NCBI GenBank assembly: GCA_045110495.1 | Contig: JBGCGE010000045.1 | Span: 10,462 to 74,461 of the forward strand | Length of the DNA: 64,000 nucleotides | Source of the DNA: Gammaproteobacteria bacterium | GTDB taxonomy: Bacteria > Pseudomonadota > Gammaproteobacteria > CAJXQU01 | Direction: 5' to 3' | Shown here: positions 6,559 through 63,910 of the stretch, piece by piece | How the letters are laid out: every line of letters starts with the position of its first letter | Position numbering within the stretch: position 1 is the stretch's first letter | Position numbers and translations under genes: made by a program | Notes under the pieces: model-generated | Databases searched by the model: none | What the model was told of the DNA's origin: nothing | The model's input: the letters and a program-made list of their open reading frames with translations, nothing else

Positions 6559-6575
6559 AAAATAGGGGAATTAAA

Positions 6576-7007: not shown

Positions 7008-7112
7008 AAAAGCATAGGTGCAATGACTGGTCACTGAATATTTATTAAATAACGAAATCGGTAAAGATTATAGTAAGGAGTCCAGAGCCAGGTACATGAG
7101 TATTAATTTACG

Positions 7113-7143
7113 ATAAAAAGCGATTCACATATCGTTTTTAAAA
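7113..7143. terminator. Candidate bidirectional rho-independent terminator between two convergent genes.
   Basis: AAAAAGCGAT-tcacat-ATCGTTTTT: an imperfect hairpin flanked by an A-run on one side and a T-run on the other, between the response regulator (+) and the outer-membrane gene (-). Confidence 0.35.
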
Positions 7144-8508: not shown

Positions 8509-8603
8509 TATCTTCTCTCATCACTCTTTCTATTTGTGCTGGTCTAATTAGAATCTGATATTGGTTAGAAGTTGAATAAAAGAAGAGCTAAAACGTGCGC
8601 TAT

Positions 8604-8635
8604 ATACCAACGCAATAAACATTCCAGAAATTAAT
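8604..8635 (-). terminator. Rho-independent terminator downstream of the RR-PAS-GGDEF-EAL gene.
   Basis: Perfect 9-bp stem CATTCCAGA / TCTGGAATG with an 8-nt loop, followed on the minus strand by a U-rich tract (UUUAUUG). Confidence 0.5.
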
Positions 8636-8659
8636 ATCTGGAATGATTTATTTCAAATG

Positions 8660-10891
8660 TCAGGTTGTCTCGCTCTCTGTTACATCTAAAGTTTTTGCAG
8701 GATGACTATAAGAATTCTCTAGAAGCCAGGCAGTCATTTCACCAACGGTTACGGGTTTGTTTATGAAATAACCCTGGCCTATATCACAGCCAAAACTTTT
8801 CAATACTTCAATATGCTCAGCACTTTCAATGCCTTCAGCAACAACGCGGTAACCAAGGTTGTGCGCAAGATCGATAGTTGATTGAACGATAATTGGATCA
8901 CTTTCATTTTTAAGCATACTGACCACAAAAGATCGATCAATTTTAAGTTCATCTACAGGTAGTTTTTTCAGATAGGCTAATGATGAATATCCAGTTCCAA
9001 AATCATCAATGGAAAGATTAACTCCAAGCTTATCTAGCGAATGTAAAACGTTTAGCAGATTTTCTGAATCTTTCATAATGGCGCTTTCTGTAATCTCAAG
9101 CGTTAGAAAATGCGGTAAGATATCCCATTCTTTGAGTAAGCTATCCACAAGGATTGGCAAGCCTTTATCAGAAAGGTTTCTGGCAGAAAGGTTTACAGAT
9201 ATGTCTATTTCAACACCTTGTTTTTTCCACTCAGCTAATTGCTTAATAGCTGTACTCAGTGCCCATTTTGTAAGAGGTTGAATAAGACCGGAGCGTTCAG
9301 CGTGAATAATAAATTCATCTGGTGGAACGAAACCATATTCCTCATGCTCCCATCGCGCTAATGCTTCAACGCCACAAACTTGCTTCGTCTCCAAGTTGAT
9401 CTTTGGCTGGTAATGAAAAGTGAGCTGATCATTTTCGACAGCATTTCGTAACTCACCCGAAACGGCCAGACGGCGTAAACTATTATTATCTCTACTGCAA
9501 TCATAAAGTTGTACGCCCCCATGATTAGCTTTGGCCATGTACATCGCCACATCAGCACAGCGTAATAAAAGATCCGCTTGCTCTGCATGCTCCGGATAAA
9601 GAGCAATGCCTGCGCTCATTCCGACTTCCAGCATCATGCCCTCAATTTTGAAGTGTTCTTCCATGGCATTGAGCATACGATCTGATATTTCAATCGCGTT
9701 CTCAAGCGCACTGACAGCGGGTAACAAGACTGCAAATTCATCGCCGCCAAGTCGAGCGAGTGTATCTACTTCCCGGATCTGTTTTTTTAATCGAATGGCG
9801 ACTTGTTTTAATAACGTATCACCTGCTTGGTGTCCTAGTGTGTCATTGACTTCTTTGAAGTGATCAAGATCAATTAAAATCAAAGCAAAGGGTTCACCGC
9901 TGCGTTTCGCAACGTCAACCTCATGTTGCAATCGGTCATTTAGCAAAGAGCGATTAGGTAGATCAGTTAGTGTGTCATGTAACGCCAGATGCTGTACTAC
10001 TACCTGGTGTTCCTTTTCTGAGGTGAGATCTATCCAGGTACCGACATGCTCAAGTGGATAATTGTTATCATCATAAACTAGGGCAGACTCATCGTTGATC
10101 CATCGATATTCACCATCCTTATGCATGAAACGATATTCAACTCTGGATATTTCTGATGAAGAAAGCAGTGATATATGGTTTTTAAGTTGGTCTAGATCAT
10201 CTGGGTGAACCTTCGTTATCCAGAAATCTGGATCCTCGATAAATAACTTAGCTTCCCACCCCAATAGTCGGCGACTATTCTCGCTAACGTAATTGAATTC
10301 ACTAAATTTTGATGCGGAGCGACTGTAAATAACCGAAGGACTCGAAGACAACAGGTGTTGCATACGCTGCGAATTTGCCTGTAATGATCTGTCTGATACC
10401 CATTTCGCTGAAAGTGCATGCGCAAACTGAGTAAGCTCGTCTGGCTTAATGGGTTTCTGACAATACAATAATTTATCAACAGGTGGGACTTGCTGACCAA
10501 ATTCGCTGGGTTTGATATCCGAATAACCCGTTATAAAAACTATATTGAGATTAGCATCAATCTCACGGATCATTTTTGCCGTTTCGACTCCACTGATACC
10601 TGGCGGCATGCGCACATCCAGGAACGCGACTGAATAAGGTTGACCTTCATCAATTGCAGCACGTACTTTTTCTACAGCAATTTCTCCTTGTCGACAAAGA
10701 GTTACGTCGTAATTTGGTGAGGCATTGTTTTCAACAATTTCGGTATCCCCAAAAAGTTCGGCTTCTAGTGCTGATCGACTTTCTTTAGCTTGGATGACGC
10801 TTTCATTACCACCTAAGACAGAAGCATATTCATCCAGAATCGCTTGCTCATCATCAGCGATCAAAATTCGTGTTTGTAAATCTTTTGGCAT
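8660..10891 (-). CDS. Response regulator with receiver, PAS, GGDEF and EAL domains.
   Basis: N-terminal ILIADDEQAIL receiver with FLDVRMPPGISG. PAS region present. RLGGDEFAVLL (GGDEF motif). EALARW plus DDFGTGYSS (EAL domain). Confidence 0.85.
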   Translation of the reverse strand: MPKDLQTRILIADDEQAILDEYASVLGGNESVIQAKESRSALEAELFGDTEIVENNASPNYDVTLCRQGEIAVEKVRAAIDEGQPYSVAFLDVRMPPGISGVETAKMIREIDANLNIVFITGYSDIKPSEFGQQVPPVDKLLYCQKPIKPDELTQFAHALSAKWVSDRSLQANSQRMQHLLSSSPSVIYSRSASKFSEFNYVSENSRRLLGWEAKLFIEDPDFWITKVHPDDLDQLKNHISLLSSSEISRVEYRFMHKDGEYRWINDESALVYDDNNYPLEHVGTWIDLTSEKEHQVVVQHLALHDTLTDLPNRSLLNDRLQHEVDVAKRSGEPFALILIDLDHFKEVNDTLGHQAGDTLLKQVAIRLKKQIREVDTLARLGGDEFAVLLPAVSALENAIEISDRMLNAMEEHFKIEGMMLEVGMSAGIALYPEHAEQADLLLRCADVAMYMAKANHGGVQLYDCSRDNNSLRRLAVSGELRNAVENDQLTFHYQPKINLETKQVCGVEALARWEHEEYGFVPPDEFIIHAERSGLIQPLTKWALSTAIKQLAEWKKQGVEIDISVNLSARNLSDKGLPILVDSLLKEWDILPHFLTLEITESAIMKDSENLLNVLHSLDKLGVNLSIDDFGTGYSSLAYLKKLPVDELKIDRSFVVSMLKNESDPIIVQSTIDLAHNLGYRVVAEGIESAEHIEVLKSFGCDIGQGYFINKPVTVGEMTAWLLENSYSHPAKTLDVTESETT

Positions 10892-10901
10892 TTAGATTAT
10901 C

Positions 10902-12812
10902 TCAGGCTGTTGTTGCTTGTTGTATTTCTGCGACGGGTAGGCTGATAGTAAATATCGCCCCTTTATCTGGCCCATCACTTCGAGCATGGATATTTCCATC
11001 CATTTTAGACAAGGTGTTAGAACACCAGTGCAATCCCAGTCCACCTTTGGTTTTGTCTGTTTTAGTGGTGAAGCCACGCTGAAAGATTGAGTCTATGATT
11101 GAAGGATCTATACCTTTACCGTCATCTTCAAACTGTACTTCTACCATCGATTTATGATTAGGCTTCTCGATTAATTGTGCGCGGATTAATATCCGACCAT
11201 TATTTTTTATTGAGAGTTGTAACGATCGCATAGCATTTACCAGAATCTGATGAAAAACCTGAGTCAACATAAAATCATCAGTGAGAATGGGGGGAAGTTC
11301 ATCAATATTCGAATCAACTTTGATGACTGATTTATTACCAATGTCATCTGGTAAGAATCGAATCGCTTGCTCAATCACTCGAGAGAATTTTTCTGGTTTT
11401 AACTCTTGAGCAGTTCTGCTGAATTGTTCCTGTTCGGAAAGAATCTCTTCTACAAGACCCAATTGCACACCTAATACATCAACAGACGTTTTGATTTGAT
11501 CTTTCTTGGCTCTGGACTCTTCGAAACTGGCTTTTAAATATGACAGCATTTTACGGCCACGATCAGTTAGTTCAGTTTCTGTTGAGAGCTCACTAAAAGC
11601 CCTGTCAGTGTTGTTGTTTGATGATTCATCAAGTATTGCCCTCAGACTACCCAATCGCAGTACAAGAGGGCTTAGTTGATTACGCAAGTTGTGCATCACA
11701 CCTGCGGCCATTTCAGCAATGCCTGCTGAGTAAGATTGTTTTTGAAGATCATGTCTTGCTTCAGAAAGATGATCTAGCATATCGTCAAACTCCCGGCCAA
11801 GTATGCCGATTTCATCTCCCTGTTCTAAGTTGAGGCGTTGAGAGAGATCGCCCGAGTGACTAACACTCAAAGTATGTTCTGATAGTTTTTTTAACGGTGA
11901 GATTATGAAACGATGGAATAGCAGGCCCATCACAATAAGCATTAACACACTTGCGATTAACATACCCCAAAGAGCATACTTAATGGAATGTGTACCAAGT
12001 ACTGAAATACTGCGTTCCACATCTGCGCGTAAGAAAAGAATAGGGCTACCATTCTTATTTCGATACGTAGAATAAACTGATAACAGCTCATCGCTCACTT
12101 CATTTACGACAACACCGTTATCAATGAGATCTTCTGATTGGCTAATAAATATTGTTTGATCTTCTACTGTTAATTTGTTCGTATCCGCTGGCCATAGCTG
12201 GAAATTAACACGTGTCTTTTCATGTATTTTTTCTAATGCAACTTCATTGAGAAAACGTGCCATGATAAGTGTTCCATGGCCAGGCCCATTGGAATTATTA
12301 TCAAGAATAGAGCTAACCGCGATAAACATCGGGCCACTTTTGGTAAGTACAATTTGTGTCGTAATTTTAACTTCATCAGTCGCTTGTATATAAGGATGAT
12401 CAGGTTTGAGTTTTGATAGATAGAGATTGTCATTATGGATAACTTCTTCAGTTACAAAATCATACATCTTTGAGACGAGTAATTGTCCTGATCGATCATA
12501 GATACTGATGTAATTTACATTTAACGTTTCGAGTGAAGATAGCGCGAGGTTTTCTTCCAAAAAGTTATTGTCCTCACCCGCAGCGAAGATATATGTATCA
12601 TCCCAATGTGACCAATCACCGGTGGCATTCTCAAGTTCTTCCAGATTGGCATTTAATGCTTCATGGATTCGGGTCATATCTTTTTGTGCTTCTTGATGTT
12701 CCAGCTCGATAAAGCTTGAAAGAATGAGTCCACGCAAAATCCCATAGTTAGTCAATATTGACAATGCGACAATAAAGCAAAGGATGATTGAAATTTTAAT
12801 TGTTAATTTCAT
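10902..12812 (-). CDS. Membrane sensor histidine kinase, cognate to the downstream RR-GGDEF-EAL gene.
   Basis: N-terminal TM segment, periplasmic domain, second TM, HAMP-like linker, H-box region, C-terminal HATPase_c (DDGKGID ... GGLGLHWCSNTL). A 10-bp gap separates it from the response-regulator gene, suggesting an operon. Confidence 0.8.
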   Translation of the reverse strand: MKLTIKISIILCFIVALSILTNYGILRGLILSSFIELEHQEAQKDMTRIHEALNANLEELENATGDWSHWDDTYIFAAGEDNNFLEENLALSSLETLNVNYISIYDRSGQLLVSKMYDFVTEEVIHNDNLYLSKLKPDHPYIQATDEVKITTQIVLTKSGPMFIAVSSILDNNSNGPGHGTLIMARFLNEVALEKIHEKTRVNFQLWPADTNKLTVEDQTIFISQSEDLIDNGVVVNEVSDELLSVYSTYRNKNGSPILFLRADVERSISVLGTHSIKYALWGMLIASVLMLIVMGLLFHRFIISPLKKLSEHTLSVSHSGDLSQRLNLEQGDEIGILGREFDDMLDHLSEARHDLQKQSYSAGIAEMAAGVMHNLRNQLSPLVLRLGSLRAILDESSNNNTDRAFSELSTETELTDRGRKMLSYLKASFEESRAKKDQIKTSVDVLGVQLGLVEEILSEQEQFSRTAQELKPEKFSRVIEQAIRFLPDDIGNKSVIKVDSNIDELPPILTDDFMLTQVFHQILVNAMRSLQLSIKNNGRILIRAQLIEKPNHKSMVEVQFEDDGKGIDPSIIDSIFQRGFTTKTDKTKGGLGLHWCSNTLSKMDGNIHARSDGPDKGAIFTISLPVAEIQQATTA

Positions 12813-31409: not shown

Positions 31410-31820
31410 ATGAAGAAAGCCCTCGTTTTACTAATGTCGATGATCGCATTCCATTCCCCGGTACTTCTCGCCGAGGAGAACATTGTAATAGAGCTAAATA
31501 AACTTGAAGACAAAGACGATAGTTGTCGTGCTTATCTGGTCTTCAAGAACAAAACCCCTTCACAATTTAACGAGTTCAAACTTGATCTGGTTATGTTTGG
31601 CGCTGATGGCATTATCAGTCGCCGTTTAGCGGTTGATTCTTCGCCATTAAGATCAAATAAAACCAGCGTAAAATTATTCGATATTGATGGGCTTTCCTGT
31701 GCAGGTATTAGTCTGATTTTGATCAATGATGTCTTGAGTTGTCGCGATGAATATGAACGCAATGATTGTGTCGATTTGATCGAAACGACTTCAAAAGGGA
31801 ATGTCTCTTTTACGAAATAA
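31410..31820 (+). CDS. Secreted hypothetical protein with four Cys, first gene before exbB.
   Basis: Signal peptide MKKALVLLMSMIAFHSPVLLA, 136 aa, no recognisable domain. Confidence 0.4.
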   Translation: MKKALVLLMSMIAFHSPVLLAEENIVIELNKLEDKDDSCRAYLVFKNKTPSQFNEFKLDLVMFGADGIISRRLAVDSSPLRSNKTSVKLFDIDGLSCAGISLILINDVLSCRDEYERNDCVDLIETTSKGNVSFTK

Positions 31821-31869
31821 CATAATATTATCCGTGAATAATGTCTAATAATAATTATAGGAAAGTAGT

Positions 31870-32526
31870 ATGAACGCGACACTGGAAAGAGCTTCATTTT
31901 TATTGGATGCGGGCGGCATTGTCCTCATCATACTATTGATTCTATCTGTCATTGCCTTGGCCATCATTTTGTTGAAATTCTGGCAGTTCAGACAACTACG
32001 ATTAAACGATCAAGGCTTTATTCAACATACGCTTGATTACTGGCGCGCCGGGCAAGCGAATGCGGCGATGGTTGAGTTGTATAGAACTTTCCATCCGGCA
32101 GCGCGGGTAATGGAAGTTGCAATCAGAAGTATCGCCGAGAGGCGTGTTGGCGAAAGTACAATCCGAGAAGAAGTGACGCGTGAAGGGGTAGAACAAGTCG
32201 AAGAATTACGATCACATTTACGCAGCCTCGAAGTGATCGCAAGCATAAGTCCACTGTTGGGTTTACTCGGTACGGTGATGGGAATGATCAATGCCTTCCA
32301 GCAAATGGAAATTGCCGGAACCCAGGTCAGTCCGTCGATTCTTTCAGGTGGTGTGTGGGAAGCCTTATTAACGACTGCGGTAGGATTAGCGATTGCGATT
32401 CCAGTCGTCGTGGTTTTGAACTGGTTTGAACGCCAGGTCGAGAAAGCAAAACATACAATGGAAGATACTGTCACTCGTATCTTCACAATCCAAATGACAG
32501 CGCTACCCGAAGAAGAGAAAGAGTGA
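31870..32526 (+). CDS. exbB: MotA/TolQ/ExbB proton-channel protein.
   Basis: Three TM segments with the ExbB signature region (SISPLLGLLGTVMGMINAF). Confidence 0.8.
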   Translation: MNATLERASFLLDAGGIVLIILLILSVIALAIILLKFWQFRQLRLNDQGFIQHTLDYWRAGQANAAMVELYRTFHPAARVMEVAIRSIAERRVGESTIREEVTREGVEQVEELRSHLRSLEVIASISPLLGLLGTVMGMINAFQQMEIAGTQVSPSILSGGVWEALLTTAVGLAIAIPVVVVLNWFERQVEKAKHTMEDTVTRIFTIQMTALPEEEKE

Positions 32527-32531
32527 TCTAA

Positions 32532-32936
32532 ATGCAGTTTGATTTTTCATCTAGTCAGGCACAGCAACCGCGAGCATTAATAAGTTTGACGCCACTAATC
32601 GACGTAGTTTTTATTTTATTACTTTTCTTCTTACTCGCTTCCAGTTTCCTTGAATGGCATACGATCAAATTATCAACACCTGCGACGCAAGGAATGGTGG
32701 CTAATTCTTCGGGAGGTGCGGTGTTGATCAGGCTAGGATCAAATGGCGTGCTCGATATAAATGGGCGTCCGGTGCTTATCAATGAACTGCCGAGTAAATT
32801 AACTCAATTTCTGGATAAAAAACCTGATCAAAAAATTCTTATTCGGCCAGCGAAAGGCGTTCCTTTGCAGCCGGTCGTTAGTGTCCTCGATGCGGTGAAA
32901 AAAGCCGGCGGACAAAATGTTTCTTTAACACGGTAA
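32532..32936 (+). CDS. exbD: ExbD/TolR biopolymer transport protein (copy 1).
   Basis: Single N-terminal TM segment (LTPLIDVVFILLLFF), ExbD fold, 134 aa. Confidence 0.75.
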   Translation: MQFDFSSSQAQQPRALISLTPLIDVVFILLLFFLLASSFLEWHTIKLSTPATQGMVANSSGGAVLIRLGSNGVLDINGRPVLINELPSKLTQFLDKKPDQKILIRPAKGVPLQPVVSVLDAVKKAGGQNVSLTR

Positions 32937-32956
32937 GAGACACGATAGATACGTCA

Positions 32957-33361
32957 ATGAGATTTCCTAAAACAGAAAAAAAACGACAATTAATTGATCC
33001 GATTCTTCCACTGATCAATGTTGTGTTTTTACTTTTGATCTTCGTCATGATGATGTCGCGCGTTGAAGGCACCGATGGTTATGACGTTAAACCGCCAGTC
33101 TCCACAAGTGAAGATCCTGCGGGCACTCAAGAACGAATTTTGATATTAACGGAAGAGGGCGACATCCAACTCAATGGCATGGACATAAATGAAAGTTCAT
33201 TATTAAAGTTTGCGCAAGATCAAAAACGCGATGCGCCTAATCAAATTGTAAAGATTAAAGCAGATGCGGATGTTGATGCGATGAAATTGATCTCACTGAT
33301 GGAAAAATTACGCATCGGTGGAATTGAAAATCTGGTCTTGTTAACCGAGAAAGGCAATTAA
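32957..33361 (+). CDS. exbD: ExbD/TolR biopolymer transport protein (copy 2).
   Basis: ILPLINVVFLLLIFVMM TM segment, 134 aa. Confidence 0.75.
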   Translation: MRFPKTEKKRQLIDPILPLINVVFLLLIFVMMMSRVEGTDGYDVKPPVSTSEDPAGTQERILILTEEGDIQLNGMDINESSLLKFAQDQKRDAPNQIVKIKADADVDAMKLISLMEKLRIGGIENLVLLTEKGN

Positions 33362-33370
33362 TAATCGGTA

Positions 33371-34600
33371 TTGGAAATGTTGACCGCGGGAAGCTCATCA
33401 AACGATTCTACAACCAACAATAACCGTTTTATTGAAAATAATAATTCTGCTCAAATTGTTGCGGTTACACTTCTTTCCGTTTTATTACATTCAGGAATTA
33501 TCTTCTGGTTTGCTTCTCAATCAGTAGAATTTCCAACGGTAGAATTCAGTGAGTTTAAAGTGGGCTTAGTTAGTTCTGAAGGACTAGGTGAAACCTTGCA
33601 AGCAAACTTACCGGATATTGTGGCTGTATCAGAAGTGGTGACAGAAGAGTCAGGCATTGTGGCGCTGCAAGATAAAAGTGCCAGCGATGTTATTCAGGAA
33701 CAAGTGATCGTTGAAGAAATAGAACAAGCATTGACTCCAGTACAAAGTGCGTTGACAGAAAATATAGAAGTCGCAACGGTAATCAGCTCAGAAGCCGCCA
33801 GTGTTGCTGATGTCTCTTTGCCTGAGATCAAAAATGTAGAACTAGCCCTGACGAATGAAATTGAAGAATCGCGTCCAATCGAAGTGGTCGAAACAATCGT
33901 TCCTTCCGCAAGCTCAAATGAAGAAGTGATCGAAACGGCAGGCATTTCTGCTGAAGTTGAAAATGTTGATCCGGTAAATGATTTTTTCAAACCGGCAGAA
34001 ATTTTATCAGAAGGTGATCCAATTGCATCTCTACCAATTGAATATGTAGTTACTTTGCCTGCACCAACCGCAATTCAACCCGATAATAATCCTGTCCTCG
34101 TTTCAAACGATGTTGAAATTCTGGAAATTAAAGCACGTGATGTAATTACCGTTAAGCCTAAACCAACGACCACACCCAAAAAAGTGGCGATTCTAACGCG
34201 GGGTGATGAGTCATCACGCCCAAGGCAAAGTCTTGCTGTAAACGTAGATTCAAATGATGCTGATCAAAAACCTTTAGTAAAAAAAGCTGAACCACCTAAA
34301 CCTGTGGTCATTCCTAAAACGTATGTTTTAGAATTAAAAAATTGGCTCAGTCAATATAAAAAATATCCGGCCAATGCGTATCGTTTAAAACAAGAAGGGG
34401 TTGCGATTGTCGGAATTGTGATCAACCGAAGTGGTGAAATTATTTCTTATGATATTAGAAGAAGTTCAGGTCATAAGGAATTAGATCTGGAAGTCGAAAA
34501 TATGATCAAACGTGCTGCAAAAATGCCCGCATTACCTGCCGATTTTCCGAGAGATCAATTGGAGTTGTTGATTCCGATTCGGTTTAAGGTTAAGGGTTGA
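33371..34600 (+). CDS. tonB: TonB-family energy transducer.
   Basis: N-terminal TM segment, long acidic and Pro/Lys-rich periplasmic spacer, C-terminal TonB domain (YPANAYRLKQEGVAIVGIVINRSGEI). Confidence 0.75.
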   Translation: MEMLTAGSSSNDSTTNNNRFIENNNSAQIVAVTLLSVLLHSGIIFWFASQSVEFPTVEFSEFKVGLVSSEGLGETLQANLPDIVAVSEVVTEESGIVALQDKSASDVIQEQVIVEEIEQALTPVQSALTENIEVATVISSEAASVADVSLPEIKNVELALTNEIEESRPIEVVETIVPSASSNEEVIETAGISAEVENVDPVNDFFKPAEILSEGDPIASLPIEYVVTLPAPTAIQPDNNPVLVSNDVEILEIKARDVITVKPKPTTTPKKVAILTRGDESSRPRQSLAVNVDSNDADQKPLVKKAEPPKPVVIPKTYVLELKNWLSQYKKYPANAYRLKQEGVAIVGIVINRSGEIISYDIRRSSGHKELDLEVENMIKRAAKMPALPADFPRDQLELLIPIRFKVKG

Positions 34601-35073: not shown

Positions 35074-35955
35074 TCAACGAATCTGTTCAACCCTCACAAA
35101 AATATGATTCTGTTCACTACCGTATCGTTTTGTTTGATACGTTCCATAAGTATTTTTATTACGATATTCCTCAGTTACACCACCAAGCTCAATCCATTGT
35201 CCTAATTTTCCTGTGATGGTTGTCTCGGCTTGTTGAGTCTCAACGCGACCATAACCTGAAGAATTATTTACTCGTGATCTTTCTGGTGAAATAAACAAAG
35301 TGACATTATCGCCTGACAGATTTGGTACAACGTAAAAACCAGAAGTAATGTCGCGGTAATTTACCGAGTCATATACATCACTTCCGTAAGGACGTAAAAC
35401 TACTGTTCTTTCATGTTCAGGTATTGATTTGCCCGTTTGTATCCAGGCTGACTGGCCTTCGACAGTACGGACAAAATAGACATCATCATCGTCAAATTGT
35501 GAGCGCGTACTGTTACTTCGATATCGGACTCCTCCGTTTTTATCGCGTGCTGAAACTACAACTCTATTGCGAGAATTGGATCTTCGATTGCGAGTTTCGA
35601 TACGAACATTTCCAGAATTATAATAACCATCAACTCCGTGTTCACGATTTTGATGAGTAGATTGAGTATCATAGCGAACGCTTATTTTTAACGAACGAAG
35701 TGGCTGATCAATAACCTCTAATGTTCTGATCAGATCACGCATATTTTGATCAGTTGTTCGAATAATTAATTGATCGTTCATACCTGAAACACTGCCGCCT
35801 TCAACAACCAGTGGTTGTAAAATTGGAACCACATCATTCACCAAACGATGTTTAAGCGGAATAATTTCTAATGACATTTGTTCTGCATTGACAGAAAAAA
35901 TAATCATTAGATTTATTATAAAAAATGCGGCAACTTTATTTAAACTGGTTTTCAT
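35074..35955 (-). CDS. Secreted protein with one secretin-N (NolW-like) domain followed by an Arg/Asn/Ser/Tyr-rich low-complexity region.
   Basis: Signal peptide. LEIIPLKHRLVNDVVPILQPLV ... DQLIIRTTDQNMRDLIRTLEVIDQP matches the secretin N-domain pattern. The C-terminal TITGKLGQWIELGG resembles the end of a secretin domain. 293 aa. Confidence 0.45.
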   Translation of the reverse strand: MKTSLNKVAAFFIINLMIIFSVNAEQMSLEIIPLKHRLVNDVVPILQPLVVEGGSVSGMNDQLIIRTTDQNMRDLIRTLEVIDQPLRSLKISVRYDTQSTHQNREHGVDGYYNSGNVRIETRNRRSNSRNRVVVSARDKNGGVRYRSNSTRSQFDDDDVYFVRTVEGQSAWIQTGKSIPEHERTVVLRPYGSDVYDSVNYRDITSGFYVVPNLSGDNVTLFISPERSRVNNSSGYGRVETQQAETTITGKLGQWIELGGVTEEYRNKNTYGTYQTKRYGSEQNHIFVRVEQIR

Positions 35956-36464
35956 AATGAGAGACGACGGAAGTTAGGATCTTGCTGACCATGTTCCCAG
36001 TTCTGGTTAAACTCACGCTGAATTTCCGAGACGGTTTTTTGATCGTCAAAGTTTGCGCGACCCTCAAACCGATCAGAATGTGGTCGGCGAATATAGCCGC
36101 TGTCATCGGCCAGAAACAAAGCTTTGTTATAACTGCCGTGTTCTCTTCCGGGTTTGCGAATTTCGATAAAGCTGCTTAACCGTCCTGCCAGATCTAGTAA
36201 ACGGTGATTGTTAGAGTGAAGGCTTCCAGGATGCAAAACAATAATGCGGATCTGAGACAGTCGTGATCTTAACGCCAACTTTTTGATCGCATCGACAACT
36301 TCCGAAGTGTCATAGATACAAGGATCTAAATCTCGGCTAACAATATCCAGATGTCGGCGACAGTTGTTGATCATTTGTACTGCAATAGCGCGATTTTGAT
36401 CACTGGTTTCCAGAATCAATTCTTCATCTGTTTCGCCGAGAATATAGTTTTCGTAGTTCTCCAT
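35952..36464 (-). CDS. Hypothetical cytoplasmic protein downstream of purB; start probably at the internal Met (MENYENY).
   Basis: The ORF track start at 36509 would overlap purB by 35 bp. The internal ATG at 36464 has an AAGGAAAA ribosome-binding site and leaves an 8-nt gap. Stop and start overlap (ATGA) with the downstream secretin-N-like gene. Nothing similar recognised. Confidence 0.4.
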   Translation of the reverse strand: MENYENYILGETDEELILETSDQNRAIAVQMINNCRRHLDIVSRDLDPCIYDTSEVVDAIKKLALRSRLSQIRIIVLHPGSLHSNNHRLLDLAGRLSSFIEIRKPGREHGSYNKALFLADDSGYIRRPHSDRFEGRANFDDQKTVSEIQREFNQNWEHGQQDPNFRRLSL

Positions 36465-36474
36465 AATCTGATAA

Positions 36475-37848
<1,374 letters not shown>

Positions 37849-50558: not shown

Positions 50559-52862
50559 TTATAATTTCGCCTCTGACAGTTTTTTCTTATACTCCTTAAC
50601 AGACAGTGCAGACTCATAAGATTTAGTTGCTTCTTTTCTGTTTAAAGGGATGGAGCCTTCTTGATTTGAGGGTGGAACTAGATCGACAGGGTAGCAGGCA
50701 AGTTTTTGTTTTTTTGCGGATAGCGATGGCCGAAAGACCAACTCTCGTATATTTGTTTTCTTCGCTTGTACGACATGGCCTTGCTCGTCTGTATCGAGAT
50801 CCCACCACCATTTTTTTACTGGGTTGATTCGACCATTTCCAACCCAATCATCTAGCTTGGAAATCCATTTGTGCGTAAACGGTAAATGCATTGCTGACCA
50901 TAAAAAAGGGCGTTCAGCCATAACGCCTTCAATATTATAAGGGCAGGTTTTCATACATCGACCGCACATAGATCCAGCAGCATTTGTGATCCGATAACGT
51001 GCACATTTTTCAACATCCTGTTTCCAGATTTCATAAGCGTTGAACATGATCTTTTTACCAAATGAAATTGCAGAACAAGGGCATTCACGAGCGCATTTTT
51101 CACATTCGCCACAGAAATTCTGTAAACCAAAGTCTATTGGTGTATCAACAGCAAGTGGCATGTCTGTAGTAATGACACCGGATTTAAAACGTGGCCCAAC
51201 AAATGGATTGAGAACAAGTTCACCTATACGTGATAATTCACCTAAGCCTGAATTTAGAATAAGTGGAATGTGTAAGACATCTTGATCCATCACACTGTGT
51301 CCGCGAGCGGAATGACCTAAATTACGAATGTGCTGACAAACAATTCCTCCAAGTAATTGCGCGCGCATGTAGGCACGCATACTTTGTGCACCGGAGATCC
51401 AGTCATCTCCACTCGCACCTTCCATCGTTTCATAACCTTGATCAATTAGTATTGAAATAGCATATTTATGATAGGGCTTGATTTCGCTTCCGTCGGTGTC
51501 ATGCGAATACCAGGCATATTCAGGTATCTCACAAATGCCGACCATGTCAGCTCCCAGATAATGTAAAGCTGCCTTAACAGCTTGAGCATTCTTGACTGGA
51601 TCTTCAGTGTCTGGATGGACTGTTTCAGCCTCTTTTCCATATTGAAGCGGAACCATGCTACCGAGTCCTGGGATCATGGCATGCCCAAAAGGTGATTTTG
51701 TGATCATACGAAACCCATCAAGCTCCTTCTTCGCCTTGTCGCCCAAATCACCAATTGCTGCACGAATAAACATGTCATGCCTTTTGGGAATGCGTGGAAC
51801 GTTTGGTGTATCAATAAACGTGGTGGGTTCATCGACATGCTTCACAGTTTCCATTGGGTATGGGCCTAAATGATATGGGCGCTTTTTGAATGGTTCTCCA
51901 GCATAACCGGGACGTGTACCTCCGATGCCAGCCCACCACTTAAAATCACGTGCCTGTTTTGCTGTATTTGGCTTGATAGCGTCGTCAGATGCGAATGACA
52001 TATTTGTAGTTACAACAACAACGCCATATCGATCACTAATGAAAGGATTTTCAGGCTTGTCTGACTTCGAATTTTGTTCAGCGAGGCCACTTGCGACTGA
52101 TAGCATAGTTAAGTCAACATCACTTGCAGTCGGTGTATGTAAAGTCGCGGAATAACCCAGCATTCGTAGATAATTAGCCATTGTACCGCCGATTTCTGCG
52201 CCTCGAATTGCAGCACGCTGTGGCTGACAATCCATAATCCAGTTTGCGCCTGGTTCTTTTTGATCGGGATCGCGAGGGTATTCGATCAAAATCACCAATG
52301 CGTTTTGATGATCATTTTTTACTTGTTGATCATGTTTACGACTCCAGTTTTCGCGTCCTTCATCAACAACACTTTTGGCCATCGCATTTTCAGCAGCACC
52401 GGCTGCAAATTCCTGCTCTTGAGCCTCTTGTAAAGTCTCATTAATGATTGGCGATTCTAACCAGGCCTGATGAGGAATTGAACAGGTCGCGACCATACTG
52501 GCATCAAGATAATAACAAGCCGCTTTTAAGTGATCAGATCGCTCAGACAAACTATCAGGAATGGGAGCTAAATGAGGAGAGGTTTCCCCCAGGCGCATAC
52601 GATCCATTACATTAACGAAATCGCGCATCGCGTTACGAATAGAGAGTGGCGAATCGGGTGATTCAATCTGTAATGCCTCTAATGGCGTATTTGGTAAATT
52701 TCGGGCTTCAAGAGGAATTCTTTTTAAACGTTCAAGCGGAAAAGGGCCGGAAGATACAGGGCGGTTTTTGTGTGAAAACATTCGCATCATTAGATTTTCC
52801 CCTTGCAGTAGTTCCGAAACTGGCAACAGTATTCGTATCATTAATGACGATTTTATTAGCAA
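50559..52862 (-). CDS. Large cytoplasmic reductive-dehalogenase-family (RdhA-like, NpRdhA-type) corrinoid/iron-sulfur protein. True start probably at MMRMF (about 52790).
   Basis: C-terminal FCGECEKCARECP followed by C-x12-CGRCMKTCP, the two [4Fe-4S] motifs characteristic of RdhA and QueG-type enzymes. Internal duplication (LKAACYYLDASMVATCSIPHQAW and VKAALHYLGADMVGICEIPEYAW) as in long catabolic RdhAs. No TAT signal and no adjacent rdhB anchor gene. Confidence 0.55.
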   Translation of the reverse strand: MLIKSSLMIRILLPVSELLQGENLMMRMFSHKNRPVSSGPFPLERLKRIPLEARNLPNTPLEALQIESPDSPLSIRNAMRDFVNVMDRMRLGETSPHLAPIPDSLSERSDHLKAACYYLDASMVATCSIPHQAWLESPIINETLQEAQEQEFAAGAAENAMAKSVVDEGRENWSRKHDQQVKNDHQNALVILIEYPRDPDQKEPGANWIMDCQPQRAAIRGAEIGGTMANYLRMLGYSATLHTPTASDVDLTMLSVASGLAEQNSKSDKPENPFISDRYGVVVVTTNMSFASDDAIKPNTAKQARDFKWWAGIGGTRPGYAGEPFKKRPYHLGPYPMETVKHVDEPTTFIDTPNVPRIPKRHDMFIRAAIGDLGDKAKKELDGFRMITKSPFGHAMIPGLGSMVPLQYGKEAETVHPDTEDPVKNAQAVKAALHYLGADMVGICEIPEYAWYSHDTDGSEIKPYHKYAISILIDQGYETMEGASGDDWISGAQSMRAYMRAQLLGGIVCQHIRNLGHSARGHSVMDQDVLHIPLILNSGLGELSRIGELVLNPFVGPRFKSGVITTDMPLAVDTPIDFGLQNFCGECEKCARECPCSAISFGKKIMFNAYEIWKQDVEKCARYRITNAAGSMCGRCMKTCPYNIEGVMAERPFLWSAMHLPFTHKWISKLDDWVGNGRINPVKKWWWDLDTDEQGHVVQAKKTNIRELVFRPSLSAKKQKLACYPVDLVPPSNQEGSIPLNRKEATKSYESALSVKEYKKKLSEAKL

Positions 52863-58790: not shown

Positions 58791-58866
58791 TACACATCAA
58801 TAGCGGATAAATATGAATAAACAAACATTTCTGCCTTGGCATTTTATTTAGCAAAAAATATTGCTT

Positions 58867-60537
58867 ATGAAAAAGAACGAATCCGCACCTTTTCCAAACC
58901 TTAATGATCTGAAAGAAGCTTTTCAGTTTGATGACGCCTCTGGTTGTGTCTGGCTTGAAGGTCAGCGAATGTTGTTGTTTCATGCCGCTGCTCTGGATGC
59001 GCTTCGCAATGAACTAATTGAGTCATTGGGTCTGGATCGTGCAAAAGGCGTTTTAATGCGAATGGGTTATCAATCTGGAAAACAAGATGCCCAATTAGCC
59101 AGAAAGCTTCGTCCAGGAGCTACTGATTGCGAACTTTTCGCAGTAGGACCACAACTTCATACTTTGGAAGGTATTGTTCGTGTAGAACCGATCAAACTTA
59201 CACTCGACATTGAAGCCGGAGAACATTATGGCGAGTTCAACTGGATCAATTCTTTTGAGGCCGAGCAACATTTGAATCGATATGGGATTCACTCCGAACC
59301 TGTCTGCTGGAATCAAATCGGTTACGCCTGTGGTTATTCCAGTGAGTTAATGGGGAAGCCGATCATTTATAAAGAAGTTGAATGTGTGGGTTGTGGCCAG
59401 GAAACTTGTCGGATCATCGGAAAGCCCGCAGAAGAGTGGGAAGATGCAGAACAACTCGCCGCCTATTTTTCACAAGGCTCACTGGCGGAAACACTGTTTA
59501 ATTTAAAAGACGAAGTTCAAAACTTGCGTAATGCGATCAAAAAAGAGGTTGAGCCACAAGATATTATTGGTCAGTCCCCGGCAATACGCGAAACACTTCA
59601 TATGCTGGAAAAAGCATCAAACACGAATGTCACCGTCTTAATGTTGGGTGAAACAGGGGTTGGTAAAGATACTTATGCTCGTCTGCTTCACAGAATGAAT
59701 GAAAATTCAGACAAACCTTTTGTGCAGGTTAATTGTTCTGCTTTGCCTGCGGATCTTGTCGAAGCTGAATTATTTGGTGTTGAAAAAGGTGCATATACGG
59801 GAGCTGAAAAATCACGCCCGGGACGTTTTGAAAGAGCGCATGGAGGTACTTTATTTCTGGACGAAATTGGGGAAATGAATATTGCTGTTCAGGCAAAATT
59901 ATTACGTGTTTTACAAACGGGTGAATTTGAACGTGTTGGAGATACACGCACACGAAAGGTAAAAGTCAGGTTAATTACGGCAACCAATCAACCATTAGAA
60001 GAGCGTGTAAATCAAGGTTTATTTAGAGCCGATCTTTTTTACAGGATAAATGTTTTCCCTATAAATATTCCGCCATTGAGAGAACGAAAAGAAGATATCC
60101 AGGGCCTGGTTGACAGGTTTGTTGGAATGTTTAATGCCGAATATGGAAAGAATGTAATGGGTATTGACGAGTCTCTTTTTGCGCAATTTCAGCAATATGA
60201 TTGGCCAGGAAATATTCGCGAGCTTGAAAACATAATCGAACGTGGGGTAATCCTGACTGACAATGGCAAATTAATTGATACCTCGTATATCAATCTTGAT
60301 CCAATAGTTTCTTCACCAGACGCTTCAACTTCAATAGAAAAAAATACCACATCATTTACAACTGCAACTCAAATATTAGCAGCAATGCAAGAGAATGAAG
60401 TTGGGCTGGAAGAAATAGAACAACAGTTGCTAGATACAGCCCTGGAACAGGCAGAAGGGAATATCTCGGCTGCCTCACGTGCACTAAATATTAGTTCTGC
60501 AAAGTACCGTTACAGAATACAAAAAAACAAAGAATAG
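58867..60537 (+). CDS. Sigma-54-dependent transcriptional activator of the XylR/DmpR family.
   Basis: N-terminal XylR-N/V4R-type effector-sensing domain ([28 protein letters not shown] ... ACGYSSE). AAA+ sigma-54 interaction domain ([36 protein letters not shown]-like). C-terminal helix-turn-helix domain. Confidence 0.85.
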
Positions 60538-60624
60538 ATTCTTTAGTAAGAAATTTATTCTGGCCAGATTCTTTTTATTAGCACCTCTTTTCTATAATTC
60601 AGGATAAGGCCAATTACAAATTAC

Positions 60625-60648
60625 CAATGTGATCATATGATCACATTG
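60625..60648. promoter_or_regulatory. Perfect 24-bp palindrome, candidate upstream activating sequence for the XylR/DmpR-like activator.
   Basis: CAATGTGATCATATGATCACATTG (perfect dyad), followed by a partial second copy TGATCATATGAT at 60652-60663. Lies about 85 bp upstream of the candidate -24/-12 promoter. Confidence 0.6.
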
Positions 60649-60728
60649 ATTTGATCATATGATTAATATTTAACTAACTATTTTTCCAATTTGCAAAAAA
60701 TACCCATAAATATCAATCAGATATGTTA

Positions 60729-60745
60729 TTGGCTTGGTTTGTGCT
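60729..60745 (+). promoter_or_regulatory. Candidate sigma-54 (-24/-12) promoter for the phenol hydroxylase operon.
   Basis: TTGGCTTGGTTTGTGCT: GG and GC separated by 10 nt as in the TGGCAC-N5-TTGC consensus. The match to the flanking bases is imperfect. Confidence 0.4.
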
Positions 60746-60774
60746 ATGTCTGATAGATAAATACACTTTTAAAA

Positions 60775-61053
60775 GTGAAGACAATAATAATAAACATGGC
60801 CGGCCCAGATCATAAATTTGTAAGAATCACGAACGTACGTGATGATAAATATATCGAATTCGATTTTTCATTCGAAGATCCTGAGATATTTGTTGAACTC
60901 ATTCTCCCTGTGGAAATGTTTCAAACATTCTGCGAAAAAAATAAAGTGCAATTCCTGGAAGTAGATAAAAATGTTTCTGAAGAGTATGAAAAACAGATCT
61001 GGCGACTGGGACAAGCTGGAAAAAAGTTTTTGAAAAATAAAAGAACACTATAG
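60775..61053 (+). CDS. dmpK: Phenol hydroxylase assembly component (DmpK-like). Start may be the GTG at 60775 or the ATG at 60796.
   Basis: Protein of about 90 aa (VRITNVRDDKYIEFDFSFEDPEIFVELILP) at the head of an SDIMO operon in dmpKLMNOP order. Confidence 0.6.
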   Translation: MKTIIINMAGPDHKFVRITNVRDDKYIEFDFSFEDPEIFVELILPVEMFQTFCEKNKVQFLEVDKNVSEEYEKQIWRLGQAGKKFLKNKRTL

Positions 61054-61064
61054 GTGAGAAGAAG

Positions 61065-62057
61065 ATGCATATAGATATAAAAAGCAAAAATGTAGAAACG
61101 ATCAGGAATACTTTTGATCATATAAAAGAACGTTTTGGTGACAAACCTGCGAGTCGCTATCAAGAAGCAACTTTCGATCTTCAACCAACCGCAAATTTTC
61201 ACTATCGCCCAACGTGGCAGCCACAATTTGAACTGTACGATGTAAGACGTACGGCTGTTGTGATGGAGGATTGGTACAAACTGACTGACCCTCGTCAATT
61301 TTATTACGCCTCTTACGTAATGAATCGTGCACGTTTACAAGAATCTGCAGATCAAAATTTCACGCTTATAGAAAAGCGGGGACTGCTTGATTTAATGCCT
61401 GATACTGTTAAGCAAAAAATATTGAATTACGTTCTACCACTGCGCCATTACTCGTGGGGTGGAAACATGAACAATACTCAAATTTGTGCAATGGGTTACG
61501 GAACAGCGATCACGGCGCCTGCGATGTTTCATGCGGCGGATCATTTAGGTATCGCACAATACATAACGCGCATTGGACTTTTGATCGGTGAAAACGAAGT
61601 CGAAATATTAGATCAATCAAAAAAAGATTGGGTTGAAAAACAACAATGGCAAGGGTTAAGAAAAGCAGTTGAAGATAGTTTTGTGCTAGAAGATTGGTTT
61701 GAATTATTTGTTGTTCAAAATTTTGTAATGGATGGATTAATACATCCATTATTTTTTAATCATTTTGAAGCACAAATTAATAAAGAAGGTGGAACCGCCG
61801 AATCCATGATGACTGGTTTTATGGCGGACTGGTATAAGGAAACAACTCGTTGGGTTGATGCTCAGCTCAAAGTGGCAGCATCCGAGTCGGAACAGAATAA
61901 TAAATTGATAACGGGTTGGATCAATAAATGGTTGAGTGTTTTGGAAGATGCACTTTTACCGCTTGCGACAGGTGCGCTCGATGATGGTGACGCCATTATG
62001 GCAGAAATTAAATCTGCATTGGTTAAACGTGCTGAAAAAATAAATATAAAACTTTAA
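61065..62057 (+). CDS. dmpL: Phenol hydroxylase beta subunit (DmpL-like).
   Basis: 330 aa non-catalytic hydroxylase subunit; operon position and size match group-1 SDIMO. Confidence 0.7.
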   Translation: MHIDIKSKNVETIRNTFDHIKERFGDKPASRYQEATFDLQPTANFHYRPTWQPQFELYDVRRTAVVMEDWYKLTDPRQFYYASYVMNRARLQESADQNFTLIEKRGLLDLMPDTVKQKILNYVLPLRHYSWGGNMNNTQICAMGYGTAITAPAMFHAADHLGIAQYITRIGLLIGENEVEILDQSKKDWVEKQQWQGLRKAVEDSFVLEDWFELFVVQNFVMDGLIHPLFFNHFEAQINKEGGTAESMMTGFMADWYKETTRWVDAQLKVAASESEQNNKLITGWINKWLSVLEDALLPLATGALDDGDAIMAEIKSALVKRAEKINIKL

Positions 62058-62071
62058 TTGAGAGAGACAAC

Positions 62072-62344
62072 ATGACCGAAAACGTATTTTTAGCACTACA
62101 AGCAAATGACGATGCCAGGCCTATTGTTGAAGCGATCGAGAAAGATAATCCTGATGTTGATGTTAGCTATCAACCTGCAATGATTCGTATGACAGCACCA
62201 GGAAAGTTAACCGTTTTACGTGAGACAGTTTCTGAACTGATCGGGCGAGACTGGGATCCGCAAGAACTTCACCTGGTACTTATTTCTTTTGGTGGAAATG
62301 TCGAAGAAGATGAAGACCAATTTACTATTTCATGGGCAAGCTAA
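62072..62344 (+). CDS. dmpM: Phenol hydroxylase regulatory/effector protein (MmoB/DmpM family).
   Basis: 90 aa; ALQANDDARPIVEAIEKDNPDVDVSYQPAMIRMTA ... ISFGGNVEEDEDQFTISW matches the DmpM pattern. Confidence 0.8.
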   Translation: MTENVFLALQANDDARPIVEAIEKDNPDVDVSYQPAMIRMTAPGKLTVLRETVSELIGRDWDPQELHLVLISFGGNVEEDEDQFTISWAS

Positions 62345-62389
62345 AGAATTAATTAATTTAAAAATGATCAATAGTTTGAGGAAAATATA

Positions 62390-63910
62390 ATGGCTAAAAG
62401 ATTAAACATGAGAGACCGTTACGACTACATGACGCGTCTTGGTTGGGACACAACATACCAACCAAAAGAAAAAGTTTTTCCTTATGATAAATATGAAGGA
62501 ATAAAGATTAAAGATTGGTCAGGTTGGGAAGATCCTTTTCGAATGACGATGGATAGCTATTGGAAATATCAGGGCGAAAAAGAAAAAAAGCTTTATGCAA
62601 TTTTAGATGCTTTTGCACAAAATAATGGACATGAAAATATTACGGATGCGAGTTATCTGAACGCGATAAAACTTTTCATACAAGGAATTACACCTGCTGA
62701 ATATTCGGCTCATCGCGGTTTTGCATTTACCGGAAGACATTTTGCTGGTGATGGTGCACGTGTAGCTTGCCAGATGCAGGCAATAGATGAACTGCGTCAT
62801 GCACAAACTCAAATTCATACTATCAGTCACTACAATAAACATTTTAGTGGGATGCACGATTTCACACATTGGGGTGATCGTATCTGGTACTTATCTGTTC
62901 CCAAATCATTTTTTGATGATGCGCGAACCGCGGGGCCATTTGAATTTATGGTGGCGATTGGGTTTTCATTTGAATATGTTTTAACCAATCTGTTGTTTGT
63001 TCCGTTTATGTCGGGAGCTGCGTATAACGGTGACATGGCAACAGTCACATTTGGCTTTTCTGCCCAATCTGATGAAGCCCGTCATATGACGCTAGGTTTA
63101 CAAGTTATCAAATTTATTTTGGAACAACACGAAGATAATTTGCCTATTGTTCAAAAATGGATCGATAAATGGGTGTGGCGCGGTTATAAAGTGTTAGGCC
63201 TTGTTTCAATGATGATGGATTACATGCTGCCAGAAAGTCCAATGTCATGGAAAGAATCGTGGGAGCTTTATTTTGAGGAGAACGCAGGCGCCTTATTTAA
63301 AGACCTTGAACGGTATGGAATAAAACAACCTTCTTACGTGGATATTTGTTCGAAAGAAAAAGAACATTTAAGCCATCAAGTATGGAGTATTTTTTACAAC
63401 CACACTGCTGCCGCCGCATTTCATACCACGCTACCAGATGAGAAAAAAATGGATTGGCTGTCAGAAAAATATCCAGATACGTTTGATAAATTTTACCGTC
63501 CAAGATATGACCTGTGGCGTGAACGAGAAGAAGCGGGCGAGCGGTATTACAGTAAAACGTTACCCATGCTGTGCCAGACTTGTCAGATACCGATGGGCTA
63601 CACAGAGAAAGATGATTTCACCCAGATTGCTTATCGCCATTCTGACTTTGGTGGTGATAGATACAATTTTTGTTCTGATCCTTGCAAAGCTATTTTTGAT
63701 GATGAACCCGAAAAATATGTTCAGGCCTGGATGCCAGTACAACAAATCTTCCAGGGTAATTGTGGCGGTGCTGATATCAAGGATGTATTGAAGTGGTACA
63801 AGCTTGAAGATGGTGTCGACAACATGGATTATCACGGATCATTAGATGAAAAGCGTTGGAAAGAAATGAAAGGTTTTGCAGATAATTCAAGTGATAAAAC
63901 GGGTACATAA
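62390..63910 (+). CDS. dmpN: Phenol hydroxylase alpha (diiron catalytic) subunit (DmpN-like).
   Basis: Diiron ligand motifs DELRHAQTQ and SDEARHMT. Collinear with DmpN throughout (YWKYQGEKEKKLYAILDAFAQNNGH ... FVPFMSGAAYNGDMATVTFGFSAQ). Confidence 0.9.
   Translation: MAKRLNMRDRYDYMTRLGWDTTYQPKEKVFPYDKYEGIKIKDWSGWEDPFRMTMDSYWKYQGEKEKKLYAILDAFAQNNGHENITDASYLNAIKLFIQGITPAEYSAHRGFAFTGRHFAGDGARVACQMQAIDELRHAQTQIHTISHYNKHFSGMHDFTHWGDRIWYLSVPKSFFDDARTAGPFEFMVAIGFSFEYVLTNLLFVPFMSGAAYNGDMATVTFGFSAQSDEARHMTLGLQVIKFILEQHEDNLPIVQKWIDKWVWRGYKVLGLVSMMMDYMLPESPMSWKESWELYFEENAGALFKDLERYGIKQPSYVDICSKEKEHLSHQVWSIFYNHTAAAAFHTTLPDEKKMDWLSEKYPDTFDKFYRPRYDLWREREEAGERYYSKTLPMLCQTCQIPMGYTEKDDFTQIAYRHSDFGGDRYNFCSDPCKAIFDDEPEKYVQAWMPVQQIFQGNCGGADIKDVLKWYKLEDGVDNMDYHGSLDEKRWKEMKGFADNSSDKTGT

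Follow-up and report, generated by a model that had tools for sequence, protein, structure and literature searches.

Minimal secretins without N0, amphipathic helical loop or S domain, encoded next to a DUF7931 gene downstream of purB

To our knowledge, all secretins studied so far serve large envelope-spanning machines as their ports in the outer membrane: the type II and type III secretion systems, the type IV and Tad pili, and the filamentous phages. Models of their assembly rest on three elements: the N0 domain, which serves docking; the amphipathic helical loop (AHL), which serves membrane insertion; and the S domain, which together with a pilotin serves targeting. Here we report, from a computational analysis, the mini-secretins: a large subfamily of secretins, hitherto uncharacterised, whose architecture is minimal and whose genomic context is not that of a secretion system. 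The member described in detail is a 293-residue protein encoded by an open reading frame (ORF-B) in a stretch of 64,000 nucleotides from a Gammaproteobacteria bacterium (NCBI GenBank assembly GCA_045110495.1, contig JBGCGE010000045.1, positions 10,462 to 74,461). This whole stretch is termed the window below, and all coordinates without a locus label are positions in it. On the minus strand of the window the gene order is purB > DUF7931 (ORF-A) > mini-secretin. The pair downstream of purB had been singled out, from the letters of the window alone, as an unrecognisable cytoplasmic protein coupled to a small secreted protein with a secretin N-domain; we refer to that proposal as the original prediction.

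The best sequence and structure matches of the mini-secretin are GspD/XcpQ and PilQ/HofQ, with which it has in common the Secretin and Secretin_N domains and a gated double-barrel core. These are proteins of 550-750 residues with domains N0 to N3 (in PilQ also AMIN), the AHL and often an S domain with its pilotin, an equipment of which the mini-secretin has only an N3-type domain. They are, furthermore, encoded with or work with inner-membrane platforms, whereas no such neighbours are present at the mini-secretin. The phage f1 secretin pIV (PDB 7OFH) resembles the mini-secretin in its short junction between N domain and barrel, in the hinge glycines of Gate 1 and in the lack of N1 and N2. Unlike the mini-secretin, pIV has an N0 domain (residues 1-88), for which a contact with the inner-membrane proteins pI/pXI has been proposed, as well as an AHL motif, GVPFLSKIPLIGLLF. 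The mini-secretin gene, for its part, is found on the chromosome among housekeeping genes, and we could find no relatives of it in phages.

Short secretins without N0 are also on record. KilC of the Myxococcus xanthus Kil (Tad-like) system has been described as 'uniquely short' and as lacking a canonical N0 (PMC8460266). Its gene belongs to a Tad-like cluster that also encodes pilins, platform proteins, an ATPase and a homologue of CpaB, and KilC is indispensable to this machine. At the mini-secretin there is no such cluster, and the likeness of the two proteins is one of description. The truncated mitochondrial GspD of jakobids and heteroloboseans lacks N0 and the S domain, and still oligomerises and inserts into membranes (PMC8134430). 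This protein keeps the AHL and works with GspE/F/G; the mini-secretin is its reverse, having lost the AHL while retaining N3 and the core in full. These precedents run counter to the estimate in the original prediction that ORF-B is some 200 residues shorter than other secretins: in size, too, the gap to mature f1 pIV (405 residues) is only about 110 residues. Our literature search on stand-alone or small secretins returned only unrelated papers or papers on classical secretins; secretin structures from Acidithiobacillus, followed up as a candidate, proved to come from a nanopore study of a normal secretin of the type II secretion system type.

The secretin core of ORF-B and the parts absent from it

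The mini-secretin gene occupies positions 35074-35955 on the minus strand, as do all the features of this section, and codes for 293 residues followed by a stop codon. Its product is a true secretin: a signal peptide is followed by a single domain of the N3 type and by a compact core that is complete and includes both gate loops. The Pfam Secretin domain (PF00263) matches residues 162-270 (profile positions 16-132 of 169) with 34.1 bits against a gathering score of 27.5, and is carried by most homologues too. Secretin_N (PF03958) matches residues 30-86 with 23.7 bits, below its cut-off of 28.2, and is among the precomputed Pfam domains of most homologues. The N-domain similarity on which the original prediction was built is real, but in the window copy it stays under the threshold. 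Similarly, ORF-B does fall into a well-characterised superfamily, that of the secretins, but it lies far below the cut-off of every curated subfamily: for the NCBIfam models the scores are 34.8 against 351.35 bits for GspD (TIGR02517), 28.8 against 284.35 for PilQ (TIGR02515), each about one tenth of what is demanded, and 15.8 against 554 for HofQ (NF010083).

A search of PDB chains with the single ORF-B sequence gave no match at E<=1. The family profile recovers XcpQ (5.7e-14) and f1 pIV (2.2e-8), and the alignment with the latter begins late in N3 and covers most of the secretin domain (query residues 52-263 to chain residues 145-375). The PHROG pIV family matches ORF-B residues 25-271 (5.3e-13) over profile positions 105-365 of 403, and its start at position 105 fits the missing N0. 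An AlphaFold2 monomer model, built from an alignment of 41 homologues, has a mean predicted local distance difference test score (pLDDT) of 82.2. It consists of a signal-peptide helix (residues 5-22), an N domain (28-82) and then an all-beta region, which comprises four long strands (88-114, 141-165, 254-270 and 273-292), a hairpin at 117-138 and two shorter hairpins at 177-202 and 206-225. When this model was compared with the PDB by Foldseek, the best 40 matches were all secretins (E 1e-16 to 1e-8), including PilQ (1.5e-16), GspD, InvG, pIV, RcpA and BfpB; the structural check advised in the original prediction hence returns a secretin fold for the ORF-B monomer.

The protein begins with a predicted Sec signal peptide at residues 1-24 (35884-35955): MKTSLNKVAAFFIINLMIIFSVNA, followed by EQ, with cleavage after VNA and without a lipobox cysteine. 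Residues 27-86 (35698-35877) constitute the N3-type (Secretin_N) ring-building domain, predicted with a pLDDT of about 95 as a beta-alpha-beta-beta-alpha fold. In alignments this domain corresponds to residues 112-170 of XcpQ and to the final part of pIV N3, from chain residue 145 onward. There follows a variable segment, residues 95-160 (35476-35673), which is Arg/Asn/Ser-rich just as the original prediction had described it. It had been interpreted there as a low-complexity spacer; in the AlphaFold2 model, however, residues 88-165 are two outer-barrel strands of about 25 residues each with a lip hairpin between them (strands 88-114, 117-120, 131-138 and 141-165). We accordingly read residues 95-160 as the likely upper outer barrel and beta-lip, not as a linker.

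The Gate 1 loop (residues 175-206; 35338-35433) is 31 residues long and aligns to the 'VGQNVPF...ERxxxG' region of pIV and XcpQ. It is flanked by hinge glycines, namely the invariant G206 and G175, whose conservation in the family is at least 90%; in pIV the hinge role at Gate 1 has been assigned to G267/G297 (PMC8563730). The Gate 2 loop (residues 226-241; 35233-35280) aligns to pIV D321-N335. It contains the only low-confidence stretch of the model (227-241) and is weakly conserved, as in other secretins. The least conserved parts of the family are the barrel/lip segment (majority fraction 0.37), the Gate 2 loop and the last turn. As modelled, residues 88-293 would thus amount to the whole compact secretin core with both gate loops, and not to the short segment resembling the end of a secretin that had been proposed; the piece that is missing is the AHL motif near the end. 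Other elements of the proposal stand: the protein is secreted, unusually small and has a single N domain, and of the two options then offered, a minimal secretin-like protein or a periplasmic scaffold, the former is the better.

The mini-secretin lacks N0, the AHL, the S domain and a lipobox. The place of the AHL is taken by a short, polar, proline-free turn (residues 261-283; 35107-35175) with no VPxLxxIPxxGxLF. This motif is reported to be a signature of all structurally characterised secretins and is held to be essential for membrane insertion (PMC8134430, PMC6532946); it has also been described as the most conserved region of EpsD. We could confirm it in pIV, GspD, PilQ, DR_0774 and InvG, and in pIV it comes straight after the region aligning to the mini-secretin family. 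None of 219 mini-secretin relatives, gathered in two independent searches, has it; past the conserved GG their polar tail measures 34 residues in the median and almost never contains proline. The Pfam and PHROG alignments of ORF-B both end just before the AHL place, and the model is without a helix beyond residue 82.

Likewise, N0 and N3 are said to be common to all secretins (PMC8563730); ORF-B has no N0 domain, only E25 and Q26 standing between the predicted cleavage site after A24 and the N3-type domain. N1 and N2 are not present either, nor is an S domain: ORF-B ends with the last barrel strand, 10 residues past the beginning of that strand. The lipobox is absent from ORF-B, a lipobox-like motif occurs in 4 of the 219 relatives, and 208 of them have no cysteine at all. 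The family therefore combines the loss of N0, AHL and S domain with the retention of N3 and both gates.

This architecture is widespread. A HMMER scan of 1.84 billion representative proteins yielded 1292 clusters at 50% identity (E<=1e-30), the best 150 of which are all 242-372 residues long and matched end to end; across the 219 relatives the median length is 287 residues. In a scan of one genome per species, 258 genomes have a mini-secretin relative: the carriers are nearly all uncultured Gammaproteobacteria, with some Betaproteobacteria, and the others are Nitrospinae and unassigned metagenome contigs. A phage or plasmid origin was considered and rejected, since tblastn with the mini-secretin gave no match in 50,697 phage and 72,556 plasmid records and the viral structures matched in BFVD were full-size phage secretins only. 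A role in anti-phage defence was also rejected: PADLOC did not match the secretin, and DUF7931 reached no more than 13.7 bits, against BrxB.

The coupled DUF7931 gene and the purB neighbourhood

The first gene of the co-directional run is purB, for adenylosuccinate lyase (36475-37842, minus strand), a 455-residue reading frame ending in TAA whose orthologues have the Lyase_1 and ASL_C domains. Its stop codon is separated by 10 nt from the ATG at 36464 with which the DUF7931 gene begins (ORF-A; 35952-36464, minus strand; 170 residues). An alternative TTG at 36509 would give a protein of 185 residues and overlap purB; this start is unlikely because nearly all homologues are about 170 residues long. 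At the minus-strand junction, which reads ...CGT CGT CTC TCA TTATGAAAACC, the TGA of ORF-A (35952-35954) and the ATG of ORF-B (35953-35955) lie within a common four-base ATGA (35952-35955), as can be read directly from the sequence. No Shine-Dalgarno-like sequence was found ahead of the ORF-B ATG in the window. A scan of the locus for promoters and terminators performed no better than on shuffled sequence and gave no operon boundary.

ORF-A and ORF-B are genuine genes. An identical ORF-B protein has been deposited from a gammaproteobacterial metagenome-assembled genome (P0001), and an identical ORF-A protein is present in the sequence collection (P0070). Initial searches retrieved 69 homologues for ORF-B and 31 for ORF-A. 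Relative to the closest relative, the ratio of nonsynonymous to synonymous substitution rates (dN/dS) is 0.14 for ORF-B, 0.09 for ORF-A and 0.04 for purB.

The conservation of the arrangement was assessed in two sets of loci, both of which were built from narrower alignments and lean towards closer relatives, with neighbouring genes identified by targeted searches. DUF7931 lies directly upstream of the secretin gene on the same strand in 71 of 80 species-level genome loci. In 63 of these 71 pair loci purB is found upstream of DUF7931 on the same strand, either directly or with roxA and/or a GNAT gene inserted after it. The recurrent neighbours of the pair are AKR, purB, roxA and purL, and the commonest order, seen in 33 loci, is AKR > purB > DUF7931 > secretin > purL. 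A four-base NTGA overlap is kept in 59 of the 71 pair loci with different start codons (ATG in 29, GTG in 16 and TTG in 14); in the remaining loci the two genes either overlap by more or are up to about 55 nt apart. The linkage to purB and the overlap of the two genes pointed out in the original prediction thus recur in most of the pair loci.

The two genes are nevertheless not bound to each other everywhere. Among the DUF7931 metagenome loci with at least 700 nt downstream, 57 of 68 (84%) have the secretin and 11 do not, and several of the latter read purB > DUF7931 > purL. The secretin, in turn, occurs without DUF7931 in Betaproteobacteria, Nitrospinae and others. Because each gene also occurs without the other, DUF7931 and the mini-secretin are separable modules whose tight coupling has been maintained over a broad range of Gammaproteobacteria. 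No component of type II, type IV, Tad or type III systems, and no gene for the assembly of filamentous phages, was present in the annotated flanks of the 11 neighbourhoods with gene calls, whole genomes not having been searched.

Several of the loci without DUF7931 have neighbours of their own. In Methyloversatilis a mini-secretin gene begins 12 nt after a DUF4197 gene, beside pqqD/radical-SAM and PEP-CTERM genes (locus L001, 5305-6870). DUF4197 was rejected as a general partner, as it was detected only in Methyloversatilis loci by a single-sequence phmmer query that diverged copies could escape. On a Nitrospinae contig a gene for an outer-membrane lipoprotein of the Slp family (PF03843) lies 10 nt upstream of the mini-secretin gene (L171, 4463-5849); in this lineage the lipoprotein might serve the mini-secretin as a pilotin-like partner. 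A distant mini-secretin (P0069, 30% identity) is encoded divergently from purT at a distance of 130 nt (L172, 3687-5888). After purB and purL this makes purT a third neighbour from purine biosynthesis, which may be either a coincidence or a real link.

As the original prediction had it, ORF-A belongs to no characterised family: its only Pfam assignment is DUF7931 (PF25559), matched over profile positions 2-149 of 149 with 151.5 bits against a gathering score of 27. No signal peptide was found in DUF7931, and a literature search for it returned nothing. Its AlphaFold2 model (mean pLDDT 90.3) has a phospholipase D (PLD) fold. Foldseek matches it to the C-terminal domain of TrmBL2/TrmB, NucT (1.2e-6), Nuc (2.3e-6), the DUF1669 domain of FAM83, Zucchini and PssA, with a probability of 1.0 and template-modelling (TM) scores of about 0.6-0.67 for PLD-fold proteins; by hidden Markov model, PLDc_2 reaches 13.1 bits against a cut-off of 27.

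The alpha/beta PLD fold is therefore common to DUF7931, Nuc, NucT, Zucchini, the TrmB/TrmBL2 C-terminal domain and FAM83 DUF1669. HKD enzymes have a catalytic HxK(x)4D, whereas in DUF7931 the His and Lys are lost: the place of HxKxxxxD reads NxAxxxxD in the window copy (N113-x-A115...D120), in a register taken from motif spacing on the alignment and not from structural superposition. Of these positions, those of the Asn and the Asp are conserved throughout the family, and that of the Lys varies. Other conserved residues are R44, D47, Y51, H87, R127, R132 and a C-terminal RRLSL tail, and one may speculate that they form a binding site. Non-catalytic PLD-like relatives, such as the TrmB/TrmBL2 C-terminal domain and FAM83 DUF1669, act as binding modules. 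Given the loss of the catalytic His and Lys, DUF7931 is most likely a cytoplasmic, single-domain, non-catalytic PLD-like binding or sensor module, not a hydrolase.

In many organisms DUF7931 forms the C-terminal half of a GNAT acetyltransferase. Such fusions are about 306-318 residues long and are found, for instance, in Candidatus Thiodiazotropha. The two fusion loci that were examined (L089, 2961-6957; L090, 3466-6921) read purB > roxA-like JmjC oxygenase > GNAT-DUF7931 and are without the secretin, which implies that the link of DUF7931 to purB and roxA is older than, and independent of, the secretin.

Possible functions of the mini-secretin

We favour, at roughly even confidence, the interpretation that the mini-secretin is a free-standing gated outer-membrane channel that is not docked to an inner-membrane machine. 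On this interpretation, export by the Sec pathway and cleavage of the signal peptide would yield a mature protein of about 269 residues, whose core would be made up of four long outer-barrel strands with the lip hairpin and of an inner barrel that bears both gates. It would most likely multimerise, as other secretins do, and form a double-walled barrel at the outer membrane that is normally closed. We infer that it probably works there as a free-standing channel and not as the exit port of an envelope-spanning machine, because N0 is missing and no type II, IV, Tad or III genes occur in the neighbourhoods examined. Its synthesis would probably be driven by termination-reinitiation and so be tied to the translation of DUF7931, since no Shine-Dalgarno sequence precedes ORF-B and its start codon shares bases with the stop codon of DUF7931. 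Such coupling could hold a potentially toxic pore-former at low, fixed levels. DUF7931 itself probably has its own cytoplasmic binding role, linked to purB, roxA and GNAT and predating the secretin.

Several considerations weigh against this interpretation. The literature regards the AHL as essential for insertion, so that a family without it may insert unusually or not at all. The TM-scores of the ORF-B monomer model to solved secretins are only about 0.45-0.5, with a large root-mean-square deviation. What normally forces the closed gate of a secretin open is a pilus, a pseudopilus or a needle, and there is no such component at the mini-secretin locus. Only the flanks were inspected, leaving room for a partner machine encoded elsewhere in the genome. 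A Shine-Dalgarno-like motif precedes the start in 24 of the 59 overlapping loci, so reinitiation is not the sole possible route of translation, and the tight, conserved coupling may tie DUF7931 functionally closer to the secretin than we have supposed. The weak points of the free-standing channel are thus how a secretin without AHL and pilotin reaches and enters the membrane, and what opens its gate.

The alternatives are not mutually exclusive with the free-standing channel. The absence of the AHL motif from all 219 relatives, together with the very polar, Arg-rich lip region and the location of some distant members beside genes for outer-membrane lipoproteins of the Slp family, could mean that the protein does not insert at all. 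It would then be a periplasmic or membrane-peripheral gated ring or scaffold, serving as a cage, plug or platform and possibly held by another protein. We regard this as rather unlikely: in the model the lip hairpin and long outer strands are kept at full secretin length, the lip has short alternating V/I/Y runs between its Arg and Tyr residues that could form a thin belt, and no conserved partner emerged across the family in the annotated neighbourhoods. Alternatively, the mini-secretin may act in trans, as the orphan outer-membrane port of a type II secretion, type IV pilus or Tad system whose genes lie elsewhere in the genome. That KilC is functional though short and N0-less, and that the closest sequence relatives are GspD/XcpQ of type II secretion, would be in keeping with this. 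KilC, by contrast, is encoded within the cluster of its own machine, whereas no such machine genes lie within about 5-8 kb at any mini-secretin locus inspected; there is no N0 to bind GspC or PilP, the scores are far under the GspD and PilQ cut-offs, and even in very divergent genomes the gene keeps its place between housekeeping genes. We hence consider a service in trans distinctly improbable.

A different possibility concerns the partner: DUF7931 and the mini-secretin could be one device, in which DUF7931 is a cytoplasmic sensor, chaperone or cargo, for example in a nucleotide-sensing control of the channel that serves purine economy. The adjacency in 71 of 80 species genomes, the NTGA kept in 59 of them despite a varying start codon, and the 84% of stand-alone DUF7931 loci that have the secretin all point this way. 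So do the flanking purB and purL, the purT that adjoins a distant member, and the PLD fold that DUF7931 has in common with the nucleases Nuc and NucT. Yet each gene is widespread without the other, as in the GNAT-DUF7931 fusions, the purB > DUF7931 > purL loci and the lone secretins outside Gammaproteobacteria; DUF7931 has no signal peptide and hence resides in a different compartment; its catalytic motif is lost; and the purine synteny may be merely inherited. On balance a single device appears unlikely.

Finally, ORF-B might be a functionless, decayed fragment of a full-length secretin or of a pIV gene from a filamentous prophage, as its size of about 110 residues or more below characterised secretins and its best viral match, the PHROG pIV family, could be taken to indicate. 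We give this hardly any credence. The intact signal peptide, the uniform length in the 219 relatives and 1292 clusters, the dN/dS of 0.14 and the lack of tblastn matches among phages and plasmids argue against decay, which is effectively refuted by conservation.

Beyond the free-standing channel as we favour it, one may entertain, as a long shot, a hitherto unrecognised class of autonomous outer-membrane channels that assemble without AHL, pilotin or N0 docking and open without a piston. In Gammaproteobacteria such channels would be under cytoplasmic control, their translation being strictly bound to that of a pseudo-PLD protein that senses nucleotides or other ligands. They would possibly move nucleic-acid-derived purines in or out, a cargo that comes to mind because of the purB, purL and purT neighbours.

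Other genes of the window and significance of the family

Elsewhere in the window, positions 31410-34600 (plus strand) contain an exbB-exbD-exbD-tonB cluster that is directly preceded by a gene for a 136-residue protein with a signal peptide and no Pfam match (31410-31820). A same-size unannotated gene precedes the same cluster in two related genomes (L004 and L005), which suggests that the protein is an unrecognised conserved partner of the Ton system. Positions 58861-63910 (plus strand) look like an aromatic or alkene oxidation cluster: a sigma-54 activator of the XylR/DmpR type (XylR_N, V4R, Sigma54_activat) is followed by subunits of a multicomponent monooxygenase of the phenol/toluene type, namely two Phenol_Hydrox proteins, one with a YHS domain, and the cluster runs past the window end. 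A 767-residue reading frame at 50559-52862 (minus strand) belongs to no recognisable family and has only a sub-threshold match to a 4Fe-4S domain (Fer4_16). A signalling block at 3190-12812 encodes a CHASE-PAS histidine kinase (1122 residues), a response regulator-PAS-GGDEF-EAL protein and a CHASE4-HAMP kinase, with an alginate-export-like outer-membrane protein lying within it at 7138-8508.

As for the mini-secretins, more than 1000 clusters at 50% identity keep the gated barrel among housekeeping genes while being without N0, AHL and S domain, and the family-wide loss of AHL and N0 would surprise specialists. The conserved locus also provides a first contextual handle on DUF7931, a purB-linked pseudo-PLD domain. 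If the mini-secretins do form pores, they would test which parts of a secretin assembly and gating really need, and would offer a compact scaffold of about 270 residues for structural work and nanopore engineering. In the biology of their carriers they would then represent an outer-membrane transport route that is independent of type IV filament machines.

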